Position numbers and translations under genes: made by a program. A stretch of DNA of 64,000 nt from IMG/VR virus record IMGVR_UViG_3300025413_001239; one strand, given 5' to 3'. Under the pieces are notes generated by a model, which had not been told where the DNA came from, ran no database searches, and was given only the letters and a program-made list of their open reading frames with translations. This stretch comes from a virus (lineage: Duplodnaviria > Caudoviricetes). Of the stretch, positions 8,380-41,758 are shown in pieces (positions within the stretch are counted from its first letter, which is position 1; each line of letters begins with the position of its first letter).

Positions 8380-9612
8380 ATGTTAAGAGCAATTAAAATA
8401 AGACTTTACCCAAATAAAACTCAACAAAGTTATATTAATAACTTGATGGGTTGTTATCGTAAAGTATATAATCTATCTCTTAATTATAAGATAAACGAAT
8501 ATAACTTAAATGGTGAAAACGCTAATATGAAAAGTATTGGTAATCAATTTCATAATAATTGGACAAAATCAGATGATTACCAATACCTAAATAATCATAA
8601 CACAAAAGTTTTGAAACAAGCAATTATTAATATGCTTGATTCGTATAAAAGATTTTTTGTTAATGGTAATGGTTATCCTAAATTTAAATCAAAACATGAT
8701 AATAAACAATCATGCAGATTTCCATCAGAAGCAATATCTAAACGTAACGATTATTCATCATATAAACTAACACTTATATCACAATTAAAAGATATTAAAT
8801 TTAGTTGTTCTGAAGAATATTCAAAATACTTAAACAAGCATAAAGATAATATTAGGTCTGCAACATTAACCAAAAATAAATCAGGTGAGTATTATTTAAG
8901 TATCTTAATTGATGGAGATTTATTAAAATCATTAAACACACCAAGTAATCAATTTATTGGTATTGATTTAGGTATAAAGGATTTTATTATAACGTCTAAT
9001 GGGGAAAGATTTGAAAATATTAAGATAAAAAGGGGTAATGAAAAAAAGTTAGCTAGACTACATCGTAAGTTATCTAAAAAACAAAAAGGAAGCAAGAATA
9101 AAGAAAAAGCGAGAATTAAGTTAGCTAAATTTAATCATAAACTAACTAATATTAAAGAAGAATATTTACATAAGATAAGTAATCAATTATTAAACGAAAA
9201 TCAAGTTATTGTAATTGAGGACTTAAATGTGAAGGGTATGATGAAAAATCATAATTTAGCAAAATCAATACAAGAATTAAGTCTTTACAATTTTAAGAGT
9301 AAATTATTGTATAAGAGTAATTGGTATAATAGAACAATAATTGAGATAGATAGATTTTATCCTAGTTCAAAGTTATGTTCATCTTGTGGGTATAAGAATA
9401 TTGATTTAGAACTGAGTGATAGGGAATGGACTTGTCCATCATGTAAAACAAAGCATGATAGAGATTTTAATGCTTCTATTAATATTCTAAATGAGGGGGT
9501 AAGGTTATATAATAATATAATACCCATCCGTTGTGGGGAATTAACGCCTTTGGAGAGTAGTCAACAGACACTCAATGAATTAGGAAATCGGGATTTGCAT
9601 AATATTGTGTAA
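8380..9612 (+). CDS. tnpB: TnpB RNA-guided endonuclease
   Basis: N-terminal HTH (AIKIRLYPNKTQ); RuvC-I GIDLGIK, RuvC-II IEDLNVKGM, CSSCG/CPSC zinc finger, RuvC-III DRDFNASINI. Confidence 0.93.
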   Translation: MLRAIKIRLYPNKTQQSYINNLMGCYRKVYNLSLNYKINEYNLNGENANMKSIGNQFHNNWTKSDDYQYLNNHNTKVLKQAIINMLDSYKRFFVNGNGYPKFKSKHDNKQSCRFPSEAISKRNDYSSYKLTLISQLKDIKFSCSEEYSKYLNKHKDNIRSATLTKNKSGEYYLSILIDGDLLKSLNTPSNQFIGIDLGIKDFIITSNGERFENIKIKRGNEKKLARLHRKLSKKQKGSKNKEKARIKLAKFNHKLTNIKEEYLHKISNQLLNENQVIVIEDLNVKGMMKNHNLAKSIQELSLYNFKSKLLYKSNWYNRTIIEIDRFYPSSKLCSSCGYKNIDLELSDREWTCPSCKTKHDRDFNASINILNEGVRLYNNIIPIRCGELTPLESSQQTLNELGNRDLHNIV

Positions 9613-22382: not shown

Positions 22383-23273
22383 ATGGATATTAAACAACAA
22401 GCACAAGACATTTTAAGTAAACATGGATTAGATTTTACAATTAGTAAATTACCATTAATAGCTATTGATGAAGGTGGTAATCAGTTGATAACACCTTATT
22501 ATGGTTTAGTCAATTCGAGTAATAACGAATGCATCAATACTTGCCGAGAAGGTTATACCATATCCCAAAACAGTGATGTTATTGAGATGGTGTTAACGGG
22601 TATGCAAAAGTTTGGTGATGAGTTAACAGTTAGCAAGGCTGGGTCAATTAATAACGGACGAAGGGTATTTGTGCAGTTGGAAGTTAAGGGCTTAAAAAAG
22701 ATTGGTAATGATACCATGAAGCAGTTTGTTACTGTTATTGATAGTAACGATGGTAGTACAGGTCTTAGTGTGGGTATATCAGATATTCAAGCACATTGTA
22801 CTAATCAGTTTTTCAGATTCTACAAAAAGGGTAATTCAAGGTTCAGGCATACTGCAACTATTACTCAAAAGATTCAAGAGATTCCTAGTTTAATTGAAAC
22901 AGCTCTGAATGAAAACCTAAGGCAGGTTCGTACATACGAGCGTTTCTTAAGTACTGAATTAAGTAAGAACTTAGCTGATAAGATGGTTAAGGAAGTGTTA
23001 GGTTATGATAGGGTGTTTACGAGCTTAGAAGACTTCGCAAAGATGACTAATCGTTCAACTGATATGATGGATACGCTTTATAACAATATTCAACATGAAT
23101 TTGGTGAGGTTGGTGAAAACTTATTTGGTTTGTTTAATGGTGTAACTAGATACACTACTTATCATCAAAGTACCCCTAAGCGTTTTAATGGGCATGATGA
23201 AAGTCTCATTGTTGGTTCTGGCTATAAGAAAGCCTTAACAGCTTATGACCTTTGTCTAGCTGAAATAAGCTAA
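22383..23273 (+). CDS. DUF932-family (phage/plasmid TIGR03299-like) protein, copy 1
   Basis: YTISQN, GSINNGRRVFV, DSNDGS, CTNQ, LFGLFNGVT.Y motifs. Confidence 0.75.
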   Translation: MDIKQQAQDILSKHGLDFTISKLPLIAIDEGGNQLITPYYGLVNSSNNECINTCREGYTISQNSDVIEMVLTGMQKFGDELTVSKAGSINNGRRVFVQLEVKGLKKIGNDTMKQFVTVIDSNDGSTGLSVGISDIQAHCTNQFFRFYKKGNSRFRHTATITQKIQEIPSLIETALNENLRQVRTYERFLSTELSKNLADKMVKEVLGYDRVFTSLEDFAKMTNRSTDMMDTLYNNIQHEFGEVGENLFGLFNGVTRYTTYHQSTPKRFNGHDESLIVGSGYKKALTAYDLCLAEIS

Positions 23274-23278
23274 AATAC

Positions 23279-23320
23279 TTATCCACACTTAGCTTCGGTT
23301 GAGTGTGGATAACTTTTTTT
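23279..23320 (+). terminator. Terminator whose stem is formed by two inverted perfect DnaA boxes
   Basis: TTATCCACA-CTTAGC-TTCG-GTTGAG-TGTGGATAA followed by a T-run. Confidence 0.75.
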
Positions 23321-23324
23321 ATAC

Positions 23325-23400
23325 ATGGGTAAAAAAGTAACGGGTAGGTCGGAGTATACCCCCGATGTCGTTTAGAACTATCGTCTTGTCTCAATGACAC
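23325..23400 (-). ncRNA. Candidate small RNA, copy 1 (ends approximate)
   Basis: TATCTTTG promoter at 23403-23410; body conserved with 39061-39120; no ORF. Confidence 0.55.
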
Positions 23401-23807
23401 TGCAAAGATAAGGGTTTCGTTTCATATAAAAAAACTTTTTTTATTTTTGTTTATGTGAAAATATAGTATTATATTTGCATCACAATAAAATTAAGTAGTT
23501 ATGAAAGTTGCAAAATTAGTAAGAGTGTCATTAGTTTGTCGTGTAATTTGTGAGGATACAGCTAGTAAACAGGATATTTTGGAATTGGCTATTCCTAAGT
23601 TAAGTGAAGCACTTATGGATAATCCGTATGAATCGGTTGAAGAAATTCTTGATGATACAGAATGTCCTTTTGATTTATCAACTGATGATTAAAAATAAAT
23701 TTTTTTATGTGGAGATATACTAGTATATTTGCAGTATATTTGCAGTATAAAATTTATTATTAACAATTAAACAACGAAGATGTCCCCGTTCAAAGGGCAT
23801 GTAGCTT

Positions 23808-37255: not shown

Positions 37256-37433
37256 AAACTGTAATTTTATTAAGTGATTAAGAAATTTCAGCAAAGATAA
37301 GTAGTTTATTTAAACCAACAAATTTATTTTATCCCTTTTTATAAACCTATTAACATAACTACAATAAGGGCGTATATTTATACGATTTTTTAAAAAGTTT
37401 TTGTTTATGTTATTTTACACCCTTATCTTTGCA

Positions 37434-37500
37434 ATGTTATTATAACAGGACGACATAAAAAATCGGGAGGTGTACTCCACTATGCGCTTTATTTTTATAT
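37434..37500 (+). ncRNA. Candidate small RNA, copy 3 (ends approximate)
   Basis: Promoter TATCTTTG at 37424; ACAGGACGA...ATCGGGAGGTGTACTCC core. Confidence 0.5.
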
Positions 37501-37667
37501 AACCATACATACGTTGGAATTTACAATATTATTCTAATACCGCCAAATAAAGTTATCCCCAAAATGATTTTTAAAATGTGGATAACTTTATTGCAGTTTA
37601 TTTAAACCATAACCTATCTTTGCTGAAATTTATTAACCGCTTCGAGAGAAGCACAATATTACAGATT

Positions 37668-38534
37668 ATGAAATATGTTAATTTAAAAGGTCAAAAATTA
37701 CAAAATGATGACGTGTTCCCAACAGTAGAAATTAAGTCATTTAGCGAGGCAATTAACCTCAAAACTAGGAAAGGTTATGATAATTTAGTTATCAGTAACG
37801 GCGAAGTAGTTAACGTTTGTAGTGATAGTTATGCACTACTTAAAAATGAAGACTTTTTTTTAAAGGTAGAAGAAAAGTTAATTGTTGACGCTGATGTAGA
37901 ATACACTAAAAGGAGTATAAACCGAAATAACCGTTCTTTTGCGGTTGATTACATTTTAAATGACGATAGGTATGATATTGTAATTAATAGCGGCAAAAAG
38001 GACGTTATTAAACCAATGCTTCGCTTTGTTAACTCTTATGATGGTAGTGCCAAAACAAAGGGTTCTTTTGGGTATTTTAGACAAGTTTGCACTAATGGTT
38101 TACACATTGCTGAAACAATGTTAAACTTTGATGTTAAACATAGGGGTGCAATAGCTGAAATAGTTCTCCCTAAGATGGATAACCTAATTTCAAATTTTAT
38201 GGAAAACGAATACTACACGTTAAAAAGTAAAGCTGAAACCCTTACAAATAGCAAAATTAGTGATGTAGCTAAATTTGTACAGGATATTTGTAAAAAAACC
38301 AATATCTTTAAATTTGAAAAAAGCGAAAAGAACCCCGAACCTTCAAAGTACGCTGAACAGGTAATAAACACAATTTTTAGTGAGGCAAATTACCTAAACG
38401 TTGTACCTAATTTGTGGCTGGGTTATAACTCATTTAATTCAATCCTTACCGATGGAACGTTTAGCAAAACATTCGAGAAAGAAACCGAATTTGATAACCT
38501 TATATTCAATAGGGTGCTTGAAATGGCAGGTTAA
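37668..38534 (+). CDS. DUF932-family protein, copy 2 (start ATG 37668)
   Basis: YALLKNEDFF, VNSYDGS, RQVCTNGL, LWLGYNSFN motifs. Confidence 0.75.
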   Translation: MKYVNLKGQKLQNDDVFPTVEIKSFSEAINLKTRKGYDNLVISNGEVVNVCSDSYALLKNEDFFLKVEEKLIVDADVEYTKRSINRNNRSFAVDYILNDDRYDIVINSGKKDVIKPMLRFVNSYDGSAKTKGSFGYFRQVCTNGLHIAETMLNFDVKHRGAIAEIVLPKMDNLISNFMENEYYTLKSKAETLTNSKISDVAKFVQDICKKTNIFKFEKSEKNPEPSKYAEQVINTIFSEANYLNVVPNLWLGYNSFNSILTDGTFSKTFEKETEFDNLIFNRVLEMAG

Positions 38535-38839
38535 GTACTTAACCGCTTAAAAGTAAGGGTAACAGAAATGTTACCCTTTTTTTATGCCCTTAACTATCCA
38601 TGTACACTAATGTGTACCATACGTGTGAAAATAGCCGTTTTTAGCCCATTTTGAGCCGTTTATTACCAAAATAAGGTAATCATATTAACAGCTTTATTTT
38701 AAGCCAAATTTGAGCCTTAAAATCAATTCTTTGATTACAATAAACCTATTTTTGCACAATAAAGCTATTAACTTTATTATAAGCCTATTAACTTTATTAA
38801 CCACTTAACAAAACATAAAAAAATCTTATGTTAGTAAAA

Positions 38840-39189
38840 TGTGGATAATTTTTAGATGTTAATAACTATGTGGATAAAATGTGGATAAGTACTTAGTAAC
38901 ATTTGTGGATAACTTATGTGGATAAAATGTGAATAACTTTTTTACTTATCCACATTTGTTAATAACGTATGCGGATAAAATGTGGATAACTTTTTTTGGT
39001 GGTATGAAAAAAAAGTTGTACCTTGCATCCGCATAGGCACATATATAAAAAAATAAAAGGCAGGTCGGAGTACACCTCCCGATGTCCTTTAGAACTATCG
39101 TCTTGTTATATTAACACTGCAAAGATATAGCAGCAAAATGACATGGACAAAAAAAGTTATCCACATAAGTAAAATAAAAATGTGGATAA
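38840..39189. promoter_or_regulatory. Dense DnaA-box cluster (oriC-like)
   Basis: Perfect TTATCCACA/TGTGGATAA at 38840, 38869, 38880, 38904, 38917, 38946, 38981, 39157, 39181; TGTGAATAA at 38928; near-matches at 38857, 38957, 38970. Confidence 0.88.
39045..39117 (-). ncRNA. Candidate small RNA, copy 2 (ends approximate)
   Basis: Full TTTG-N20-TATCTTTG promoter; conserved body; ends in a T-run; no ORF. Confidence 0.55.
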
Positions 39190-39276
39190 CTTTATCTTGT
39201 TTAATTAAACCAATATCAAAAATTTACCCTATCTTTGCAGTCTTATTAACCGCCGAAAGGCACTAAATTACAGATT

Positions 39277-39864
39277 ATGAATACAGTTGAAACGGTACAA
39301 ACTACTGAAATTGCAGTAAGCGAAGTAGCTGCAAAAGTGATTAACTTAGCTAAATTAGCTATCCAAAAATCGCCAACAGGTGTTAGTTTTGTTAGTATTA
39401 GGAATTATACTAATCAATACGGCGAAATTTCAAACCAAACAATTAATTTAGGCGAAAGCTATGAGAAAGCTAAATTAAGGGATATTGAAACGCTTGAAGG
39501 CTTGGACATTACCAATGCTGAATATGGCTTTAAAAGTAGTGTTTTAATGCTTGAAAAAGCAAGGGTTGAATTAATTGAGGCTTTTATTAAGCCAAACGAA
39601 ACCCGCTCAAAAGGGCAAACAGAAGCCTATACAAACATCTGTAAAGGTATAAGAGTGCATAACCAAACGGGATTGCTTTATTTATACGGCTATCGTATAA
39701 ATAAGAGTGTTTTGCAAAGTGGTACATACCCAACTAAAAATAGTAAGGAATTAACCATAGCGAAGGATGAATTAAGAAAGCTATTAAAGACAAATAAATT
39801 TGTAAACTTCTCTTTACAGGTCGGCAATGAATTAAGAATGGCTGGGGATACTTTAGAATTGTAG
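39277..39864 (+). CDS. Conserved phage hypothetical protein
   Basis: Own promoter; leader with GCC-GAAA-GGC hairpin and TTACAGATTATG. Confidence 0.7.
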   Translation: MNTVETVQTTEIAVSEVAAKVINLAKLAIQKSPTGVSFVSIRNYTNQYGEISNQTINLGESYEKAKLRDIETLEGLDITNAEYGFKSSVLMLEKARVELIEAFIKPNETRSKGQTEAYTNICKGIRVHNQTGLLYLYGYRINKSVLQSGTYPTKNSKELTIAKDELRKLLKTNKFVNFSLQVGNELRMAGDTLEL

Positions 39865-40740: not shown

Positions 40741-41103
40741 TTATTTTTTAAAATTTTTGAGGTCCATATGTTCATATATTGATTTTATTAAATCAATAAA
40801 ATCTAAATATGGTAAGTCATTTTTTAATAAGTTAATTTTTGTTCTAACTAAAACAACGTTATCTTTTGTATACCCAGCATTTGAATTAATTCTATCAATT
40901 GAGAATGCCTTATCATTGATTCTATAATCGGACAAATCATCTTCAGTTAAAGTATCCAATAATTCTTTACCAGTATATTTACATTTACAGTTTTGTTGTT
41001 CATATAATTCTTTAATAAAATCTGTTGTTAAGTCAAAGGCTATACCTTTTTTTATTGCTCGTGCACGTGCTGCGGCAACTCTAATTTTAATTAAGTTATT
41101 CAT
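40741..41103 (-). CDS. HNH-like endonuclease domain; may be the frameshifted C-terminal half of 41159-41758
   Basis: CKYTG...SIDRINSNAGYTKDNVVLV. Confidence 0.7.
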   Translation of the reverse strand: MNNLIKIRVAAARARAIKKGIAFDLTTDFIKELYEQQNCKCKYTGKELLDTLTEDDLSDYRINDKAFSIDRINSNAGYTKDNVVLVRTKINLLKNDLPYLDFIDLIKSIYEHMDLKNFKK

Positions 41104-41158
41104 TCGCCATTTTAATGCCTTTTCTTCTCTTAATTTTCGTTCATCTTCTGGTAAAGAA

Positions 41159-41758
41159 TTATAAATTTCTTTTTTTTCTAATGAAATACATTTTTTTGTT
41201 ATGAAGAAATTCTCTTAGTTCATTATCTTGTAATGAATTTATCTTATAGTAGAATTTTTTTTCTGGGTCAACGTTAGGGTATGTTATGTATCTTAATACG
41301 TTATATATAGCATCTTTTGTGACGTTATATTGCTCAGCGAGTTCTTTAGTTGATATGTTAGTATCATTGAATTTTTCTCTGATATCCTTAACGTTATCTT
41401 CATTTAATTTTTGGGCCCAACTTCTTGGTCTGAGTCCAGTTTGTATTGCGTGTGCGATATTTTCTTGTCTGGTCATCCATTCAAGGTTCTTAAAGTAGTT
41501 ATTGGTTTTTACACCATCGATATGGTTTACGGTTGTTTTACCTTCTACGTTTTCGATGAATAGGGTTGCGACTATTCTATGAACTTTAATGTTTTTGTAT
41601 CTACAAAACTTATCGCTATAAAGATTGGGTCTTACATAACCATCATCGTTAAGGATTTTCTTAAGTTCTTTTTTAGTCTTAGCGTTTCTAAGATTACCCA
41701 AATTAGAGAATTCATACTTTGTTAAGTCTGGGTGTTTTTTCCAAATTTCTTCTTCCAT
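41159..41758 (-). CDS. NUMOD4-HNH homing endonuclease
   Basis: EIWK...YEFSNLGN; VHRIVA...VNHIDGVKTNN...NLEW. Confidence 0.88.
   Translation of the reverse strand: MEEEIWKKHPDLTKYEFSNLGNLRNAKTKKELKKILNDDGYVRPNLYSDKFCRYKNIKVHRIVATLFIENVEGKTTVNHIDGVKTNNYFKNLEWMTRQENIAHAIQTGLRPRSWAQKLNEDNVKDIREKFNDTNISTKELAEQYNVTKDAIYNVLRYITYPNVDPEKKFYYKINSLQDNELREFLHNKKMYFIRKKRNL

Follow-up and report, generated by a model that had tools for sequence, protein, structure and literature searches.

A small-RNA-linked array of DnaA boxes in the early region of a large Bacteroidota-type phage: a likely landing platform for host DnaA

A 742-bp intergenic gap in the early region of a large uncultured phage holds a dense array of DnaA boxes, set among promoters, terminators and a small RNA, and we propose a model in which this gap acts as a modular, cis-acting platform that would bring DnaA, the initiator of the host, to phage DNA. 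In this model the 150-bp array, with its phased and mostly consensus boxes, would seed a DnaA oligomer, and this oligomer would then give rise to an oriC-like start of phage replication; we put the probability of such a start site at about 35%. Recruitment of DnaA as such is likely, with the function that it serves split among an origin, a DnaA sink and a transcriptional gate. The sites, the selection upon them, the consensus promoters and the anatomy of the cassettes can all be read in the DNA; what sets this locus apart is that it belongs to a jumbo phage, how large its array is and how the array is combined with a small-RNA/promoter/terminator cassette.

The DNA analysed (64,000 nucleotides, called ‘the window’ throughout, with position 1 as its first letter) corresponds to positions 5870-69869 of a 148.7-kb virus record, for which CheckV estimates a completeness of 44%. 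The gap contains no open reading frame of 50 aa or more, and runs from a DUF932 gene to the gene for a 195-aa protein (39277..39864, plus strand), which is conserved, lies directly downstream of the unit and was used to find relatives. Genes nearby encode two HNH endonucleases, a PcfJ-like protein, an AAA ATPase, a second DUF932 protein and a GP88-family protein; the neighbourhood also has a TnpB gene, ClpB and thymidylate synthase genes (both intein-bearing) and, 5-6 kb upstream of the array, two ParB-like genes. The genes that flank the gap match phage families, including PHROG phrog_21518 and phrog_36119. The 195-aa protein has at least 172 homologues, mostly on large phage contigs, some of 95-362 kb; its AlphaFold model (pLDDT 87) matches no solved structure, an Atlas search gave no result, and the sole strong match in the AlphaFold database is a homologue of unannotated type.

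Two further features of this region may be mentioned. An IS605-type TnpB (OrfB) gene lies within the phage early region at 8380-9612 of the window, and two adjacent minus-strand HNH-type endonuclease genes (40741-41758) break a block of genes otherwise on the plus strand; the first of these HNH genes also scores against PHROG families for the T4 Srd anti-sigma factor / host sigma-70 decoy.

As regards the host, the Bacteroidota promoter pattern TTTG-N18-21-TAnnTTTG is matched 39 times against 4.1 expected, nearly always before plus-strand genes, and the early region is therefore transcribed by a host polymerase of the Bacteroidota type. The DUF932 gene resembles, at the DNA level, genes of Flavobacterium psychrophilum phages. 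The host group is Flavobacteria-like, and the phage itself is a large, uncultured, jumbo-type phage of the Bacteroidota type.

Two trivial origins for the locus were considered and set aside. A chimera with a host contig was ruled out, both by the phage-type flanking genes (DUF932, HNH, PcfJ-like, phrog_21518 and phrog_36119) and by the recurrence of the array unit in four independent metagenome assemblies. A captured host oriC is not supported: the tandem 21-mer of the array is found mainly in Clostridia and other phyla, and once only in Bacteroidota, and the 148.7-kb contig carries no dnaA. The absence of dnaA had been claimed for the window, and it extends to the full contig, where neither Bac_DnaA nor Bac_DnaA_C finds a match.

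Within the gap, the first-pass annotation had described nine exact copies of the 9-mer TTATCCACA/TGTGGATAA in 350 bp, and exact matching over 38840-39189 recovers every one of them: seven copies of TTATCCACA on the minus strand (38840, 38869, 38880, 38904, 38917, 38981 and 39181) and two on the plus strand (38946 and 39157). The rarity that it ascribed to these 9-mers is equally well founded, as the window holds 15 exact boxes against 0.79 ± 0.82 expected from 100 dinucleotide-preserving shuffles of the same 64 kb, with a maximum of three in any shuffle; the whole 148.7-kb contig has 16, and 38840-39189 is its only dense cluster. A further consensus box and three near-matches had also been listed and are present, with TTATTCACA at 38928 fitting the consensus TTATNCACA, TTATCCGCA at 38970 carrying one mismatch, and TTATTAACA at both 38857 and 38957 carrying two.

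Counted at up to two mismatches, the main array (38840..38989, minus strand) comprises 11 sites in 150 bp, namely seven exact boxes, TTATTCACA, TTATCCGCA and the two copies of TTATTAACA. Ten of the 11 point the same way, and the start-to-start spacings (17, 12, 11, 24, 13, 11, 18, 11, 13 and 11 bp) fall mostly at 11-13 bp, in agreement with the co-orientation and spacing reported at first reading. Closely spaced tandem boxes, as expected of an oriC, occur as three doublets with 2-bp spacers. Repeat analysis finds a 22-nt double-box unit in three to four copies, 40, 48 and 53 bp apart, along with two 19-nt stretches (38980-38998 / 39148-39166) that are perfect inverted copies of each other and lie 149 nt apart. 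An inverted pair, TTATCCACA-N15-TGTGGATAA (39157..39189), lies between two divergent promoters and also forms an RNA hairpin; its 24-25-bp geometry is seen again in relatives.

Host DnaA is very probably the protein that binds these boxes, a view that we take because of the way in which the sites vary, their monomer-like arrangement and the presence of the same composite site in regions upstream of dnaA. When sites from the window and four relatives are pooled at up to one mismatch (59 in all, 45 exact and 14 with one mismatch), the information content is confined to the 9-mer, and eight of the 14 one-mismatch sites vary at position 5, which is the N of TTATNCACA. Some sites stand alone, some form direct tandems, and others are paired in inverted orientation across spacers of 6, 15 or 16 nt; such mixed arrangements suit binding of a monomer to each 9-mer, and not of a fixed dimer. 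At least 120 bacterial genomes, drawn from many phyla, contain the conserved core of the array, TTATCCACA-NN-TGTTAATAA; about half of these loci have further exact boxes within 500 nt, and in Leifsonia (66% GC) and Sporosarcina the core immediately precedes dnaA (the pair L300:4666-4685 and L294:5709-5728). The TGTTAATAA half may, on this distribution, correspond to a conserved weak DnaA site of chromosomal origins. The same composite recurs in similar intergenic contexts in several Chitinophagaceae genomes (L298, L299, L350, L357 and L317 are also listed).

It is very improbable that the 9-mer is bound instead by a phage-encoded or another host protein, with its identity to the DnaA box a coincidence. 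The sites match the universal consensus and vary at its one free position, the same composite lies upstream of dnaA in distant bacteria, and the contig has no Bac_DnaA_C match; against this, 56% of the genome is unseen and could encode a phage protein with a DnaA-like DNA-binding domain, of the kind that some pelagiphages possess (PMC8477408).

The loci of eight relatives, found through the 195-aa protein in a protein database (scans of viral contigs with single proteins found none), were compared and the boxes counted in each. This count across the genome and its relatives, which the first-pass annotation had suggested, gives 0-20 boxes per relative locus, beside the 16 of the present contig. 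L128 (91% identity in the 195-aa protein) has 20 exact boxes in 7 kb, spread over three cassettes, with the whole 700-bp unit both upstream and downstream of the gene in copies 1.3 kb apart; L132 (67%) has nine, in the architecture seen in the window; and L129 (72%) has three, with boxes and RNA downstream of the gene, so that gene and unit come in the reverse order to that of the window. L133 (63%) has two exact boxes, forming a single inverted pair that is a textbook terminator after the gene, and the remaining four loci (53-60%) have none, with the RNA core kept in three of the four.

The unit is carried by L128, L132 and L129, whose source assemblies are independent, and it aligns over ~700 nt at 69-75% identity with the boxes still exact, from which it follows that the locus is real, selected and not a chimera. 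The TDAGCC phased repeat and the palindrome described below accompany the array in every aligned unit, with the TDAGCC pairs only partly conserved; the AT tract varies among relatives in both length and sequence, and is missing in the second unit of L128. Conservation of the motif in relatives, on which the first-pass annotation had made its reading depend, therefore holds in part: the motif is kept in these three relatives, and the array is absent at or below about 63% protein identity, where the gene order is nonetheless maintained. Since the 53-60% relatives have no exact boxes, and L133 has a single pair, the array is a lineage-specific addition; the unit is both lineage-specific and mobile within its neighbourhood.

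The 700-bp unit is marked at either end by a 13-mer of the TTAACCGC type, found just past the stop codon of the upstream gene and within the 5' leader of the downstream one (window 38539-38551, 38797-38809 and 39246-39258; L128 3413, 4066 and 4688). It may be a recombination point through which the unit is duplicated or moved (compare L128 and L129). The 5' leaders of the DUF932 gene (37633-37671) and of the 195-aa gene (39243-39279) are themselves paralogous, both ending in ATTACAGATTATG, and promoter-leader modules have therefore been copied between genes of the early region.

The unit opens on its left with the intrinsic terminator of the upstream DUF932 gene (38555..38583, plus strand), an inverted repeat for which a terminator scan gives a 10-bp stem and then a T-run. 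A conserved block comes next, comprising a palindrome, GTACAC-N4-GTGTAC (38602..38617), which is invariant in all five aligned units, and two phased pairs TDAGCC-N5-TDAGCC (38641-38657 and 38700-38716, plus strand). The paired pattern has two matches in the 64-kb window, both of them here, against 0.00 expected, and the pairs are candidate sites for a second protein; no Rep-like family was found among the flanking genes beside these candidate iterons. There follows the AT-rich spacer (38740..38839), a candidate unwinding element within the AT-rich tract noted at first reading; the duplication of CTATTAACTTTATTA noted in it is real, the 20-mer being repeated in tandem at 38759-38778 and 38779-38798, and the tract is ~78% AT in a genome of 70% AT. 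The array itself then leads into a putative plus-strand promoter that faces the small RNA (38981..39026), composed of a box, CTTTT, a TTTG -33 element (38995-38998), 20 nt and TACCTTGC as an imperfect -7 element. Its first 19 nt (box and -33) are a perfect inverted copy of the upstream part of the small-RNA promoter, and it is kept in L128 and L132; it fails the strict promoter pattern.

On the right, an ORF-less small RNA of ~70 nt (39036..39112, minus strand) is transcribed towards the array and ends in a short 3' hairpin and a U-run. Its promoter, TTTG-N20-TATCTTTG (39120..39151, minus strand), has the full Bacteroidota consensus and is built from the mirror image of the box-plus-TTTG module. 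Beyond the inverted box pair come a palindrome, GTTTAATTAAAC (39199-39210), and the -7 element, TATCTTTG (39230-39237), of the promoter of the 195-aa gene (39199..39237, plus strand), a palindrome/-7 module that also precedes the DUF932 gene (37596-37622). We take the small RNA to be real because its sequence is conserved, its promoter fits the consensus and a few of its pairs are compensatory: eight copies align with an invariant core and some compensatory pairs. A terminator scan gives a terminator-like match within it at 39082-39065. Its folding energy is ordinary when single sequences are folded (z = -0.5 for the main unit and about 0 overall), and an Rfam search of the small RNA and the gap returned no family.

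All three places in the window where boxes cluster (~23.3, 37.5 and 39.0 kb) follow one cassette order, in which a full-consensus promoter precedes an ORF-less RNA of ~65-75 nt, with an invariant core and a 3' U-run, and the boxes lie 30-100 nt past the end of the RNA. In paralogous cassette B (37400..37622, plus strand), the promoter (37400-37431) and small RNA (~37436-37500) are followed by boxes at 37553 (TTATCCCCA) and 37577, a palindrome (37596-37607), a -7 element (37615-37622) and then the DUF932 gene (ATG at 37669). In paralogous cassette A (23279..23410), the box pair 23279/23304 comes directly after the stop codon of the first DUF932 gene and forms a 15-bp hairpin with a UUCG loop and U7, with the small RNA at ~23398-23330 (minus strand) and its -7 element at 23403-23410. 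Inverted box pairs fold as strong hairpins between A and U runs (z -4.9 to -8.5; -21.6 kcal/mol and z -8.5 for 23272-23322, -18.4 kcal/mol and z = -6.7 for 39146-39204), and are therefore able to act as terminators, something that the direct-repeat array cannot do.

The two functions offered by the first-pass annotation, replication start and titration of DnaA, are still leading candidates; these cassettes add a third reading that it had overlooked, whereby bound DnaA would activate or repress the adjacent promoters and act with the hairpins as a roadblock terminator. We regard such gating of early transcription as possible and rather doubtful, and the same applies to its corollary, that expression of the small RNA, the DUF932 genes and the 195-aa gene would be tied to the replication state of the host. 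DnaA is well known from E. coli both as a transcription factor and as a roadblock, which speaks for this reading, as do several features of the locus. Boxes abut promoter elements, as at DnaA-regulated promoters, at both 39152-39166 and 38981-38998, where a 19-nt module, present in two perfectly inverted copies, places a box 5 nt ahead of the -33 TTTG; the junctions between terminators and promoters in cassettes A, B and C, and likewise in L133, are occupied by inverted pairs with strong hairpins; and each of the three box sites in the window is part of a paralogous small-RNA cassette. A wider set of phages, moreover, has the same RNA followed by an inverted weak pair, TTATTAACA-N6-TGTTAATAA, and a T-run. 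On the other hand, 11 phased sites in an apparently untranscribed 400-bp zone far exceed what a promoter needs, and the inverted pairs may be plain terminators that are box-like by descent, in which case the array alone is left to explain.

The wider set was found by matching the pattern of the RNA core to IMG/VR phages of 27-48% GC, in which the RNA is again followed by an inverted weak pair of the TTATTAACA type and a T-run; this suggests that the strong boxes of the present lineage evolved from a weak-pair element of a wider phage family. At matches to AGGTRTACTCCGACCT in L259, L280, L256, L267, L273, L282, L264, L272, L262 and L281, a promoter-driven small RNA of ~75-100 nt has an invariant core, then an inverted pair of the TTATTAACA or TTGTTAACA type and a T-run, with no Rfam family. 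It would seem to be an RNA family of Bacteroidota phages that has yet to be described.

Dense box arrays also occur outside this lineage. Four unrelated viral contigs of ~40% GC have 7-11 exact, co-oriented boxes 0.4-1.3 kb from the gene for the large terminase, TerL (L117:12733-13029, L058:1467-1695, L021:61-166 and L015:3860-3990), and, in the records checked, IMG/VR phages with at least six exact boxes in 400 bp encode no DnaA. Among GenBank phages, the array matches only non-coding DNA of two gokushoviruses (KT264787.1:1774-1844 and MK496755.1:2689-2734); microviruses may, by this likeness, carry similar box arrays.

Returning to the replication start that we favour, binding of DnaA, formation of an oligomer, unwinding and replication are steps that we infer from the layout of the locus. 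Several aspects of it argue for an origin. The array is phased and of a size to hold an oligomer. Its boxes read TGTGGATAA with AT-rich DNA on the 5' side, the orientation of E. coli R1 beside the unwinding element. The setting is insulated, with the terminator at 38555-38583 on the left and the terminator-like hairpin of the small RNA on the right (both from the terminator scan), and a strict promoter scan finds no promoter firing into the array zone. A promoter bearing a box directs a short transcript at the array, much as mioC reads towards oriC in E. coli. Finally, a second repeat family (the TDAGCC pairs) and ParB-like genes are close by. Tandem consensus boxes 2 bp apart are a further likeness to oriC, with TTATCCACA-NN-TGTTAATAA being common to regions upstream of dnaA.

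In contrast to oriC, the locus lacks DnaA-trios and a skew turn, has neither dnaA nor dnaN as a neighbour, and has an AT tract that does not clearly stand out as an unwinding element; several of these points weaken the case for an origin. Where at least three DnaA-trios in register were looked for, no run of four or more adjoins the array on either strand, and the only run in the gap (39048) is inside the tail of the small RNA. The AT tract is ordinary and unconserved: 38758-38786 ranks among the 2-3% least stable positions of the window, with many intergenic sites less stable still. Cumulative GC skew, a weak line of evidence here since it also follows the coding strand, rises steadily over 0-90 kb of the contig and passes through the locus at 44.7 kb without a turn. 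DnaB_C helicase and DNA polymerases A, B and III alpha have no family match in the 148.7-kb contig (44% complete), so that there is no adjacent replication module. The unit has been duplicated and relocated, and is missing in more distant relatives, and under the twin-domain model transcription towards an origin adds positive supercoils that hinder its opening. Of the earlier inference of an origin or a titration site, then, the sites beyond chance, the phage nature of the locus, its retention in near relatives and DnaA as the likely binder all stand, and several features of a chromosome-type origin were looked for and not found.

Replicons that borrow DnaA provide other points of reference. 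DnaA boxes are used in the origins of P1 (oriR) and of iteron plasmids (RK2, pSC101 and F), and the present locus resembles these in that its DnaA boxes adjoin both AT-rich DNA and repeats of a second family, with ParB-type genes nearby; it differs in that no Rep gene was identified, the TDAGCC pairs are only candidate iterons and the boxes are far more numerous than the 1-5 that are typical. Phage lambda has footprinted DnaA boxes downstream of the promoter for the oop RNA, and DnaA stimulates activation of its origin (PMC3985674). The likeness here is the promoter of a short RNA with DnaA boxes downstream, host DnaA acting on the replication-control region of lambda through transcription; lambda differs in that it has an initiator of its own, O, with iterons, and only two boxes, both weak, where the present locus has 13 sites and no initiator gene was identified.

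The titration half of the earlier inference would make the array a sink for DnaA, or a modulator of its state, in which the boxes soak up DnaA or shift its nucleotide state, and initiation in the host is blocked or deregulated as phage genomes multiply. We consider this unlikely on balance and somewhat less probable than a replication start. The nine exact boxes form a cluster of high-affinity consensus sites outside an origin, as expected of a titration locus. Nearly all sites are of the highest-affinity consensus, the ratio of exact to one-mismatch sites being 45:14; their number and position vary freely in close relatives (3, 9, 12 and 20) and units are duplicated, which fits a dependence on dose and not on exact architecture; and the locus lies in the early region, with its 39 host-type promoters against 4.1 expected. 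However, 12-20 sites per genome are few before the phage has replicated, such that the effect would come late, and a passive sink would not need to be invariably linked to a small RNA, to promoters and to the conserved block on the left. The datA and DARS loci of E. coli and the clusters of B. subtilis are similar in being high-affinity boxes away from an origin whose number matters, and different in being chromosomal and regulating initiation of the cell's own replication. The literature searched gave no description of a phage-borne locus like datA or DARS, nor of DnaA boxes in jumbo phages or Flavobacterium phages; Ori-Finder-style predictions for phage G and a Pseudomonas phage are software output and not tests.

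A described analogue in a lytic phage is that of T5-like phages, where eight DnaA boxes lie in pairs among the inverted repeats of a large untranslated stretch of the first-step-transfer DNA (bioRxiv 10.1101/866236). Both there and here, consensus boxes are accompanied by the variants TTATTAACA and TTATCAACA, and boxes are paired 2-3 bp apart and placed in inverted repeats or palindromes of large non-coding early DNA; paired boxes with weak variants in inverted repeats of a long untranslated early region are thus a feature of the present locus also. It departs from T5 in belonging to a Bacteroidota jumbo phage, in its longer, co-oriented array of 11 sites, in its promoter-driven small RNA and in having boxes that abut promoters. 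The comparison raises the prospect of a DNA-entry or anchoring signal, resembling the injection stop of T5, in which membrane-associated DnaA would hold, pace or position the DNA that enters first. We think this improbable. As in T5, the locus is a long untranslated gap of the early region, rich in repeats and palindromes, and the arrays of other IMG/VR phages, 0.4-1.3 kb from TerL, are near likely genome ends; the role in T5 is, however, itself only a hypothesis, and a linear contig that is 44% complete does not define the genome ends or the order of entry.

Drawing the readings together, we tentatively suggest that the terminator of a widespread phage small RNA, with its weak likeness to DnaA boxes, was turned in this lineage into a 700-bp ‘mini-oriC’ that can be transposed or duplicated. 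With similar reserve, we would see this ‘mini-oriC’ as a DnaA-loading array placed under a DnaA-sensitive small-RNA promoter, which would either use the host initiator to start or time the replication of the phage or stop initiation in the host, according to the state of DnaA in the host.

How jumbo phages start to replicate, and what purpose sites for the host initiator serve in many lytic phages, are largely obscure, and the present locus, which is compact and conserved and varies in nature from 3 to 20 boxes among close relatives, provides a test case. If DnaA is the initiator, a giant phage would rely on a host protein for the first step of its replication; if DnaA is titrated, the array would be a new device for host takeover made of DNA alone; and if DnaA gates promoters, the phage would be reading the replication state of its host. 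The small RNA family, being common to many Bacteroidota phages, carries this question past the genome described here.
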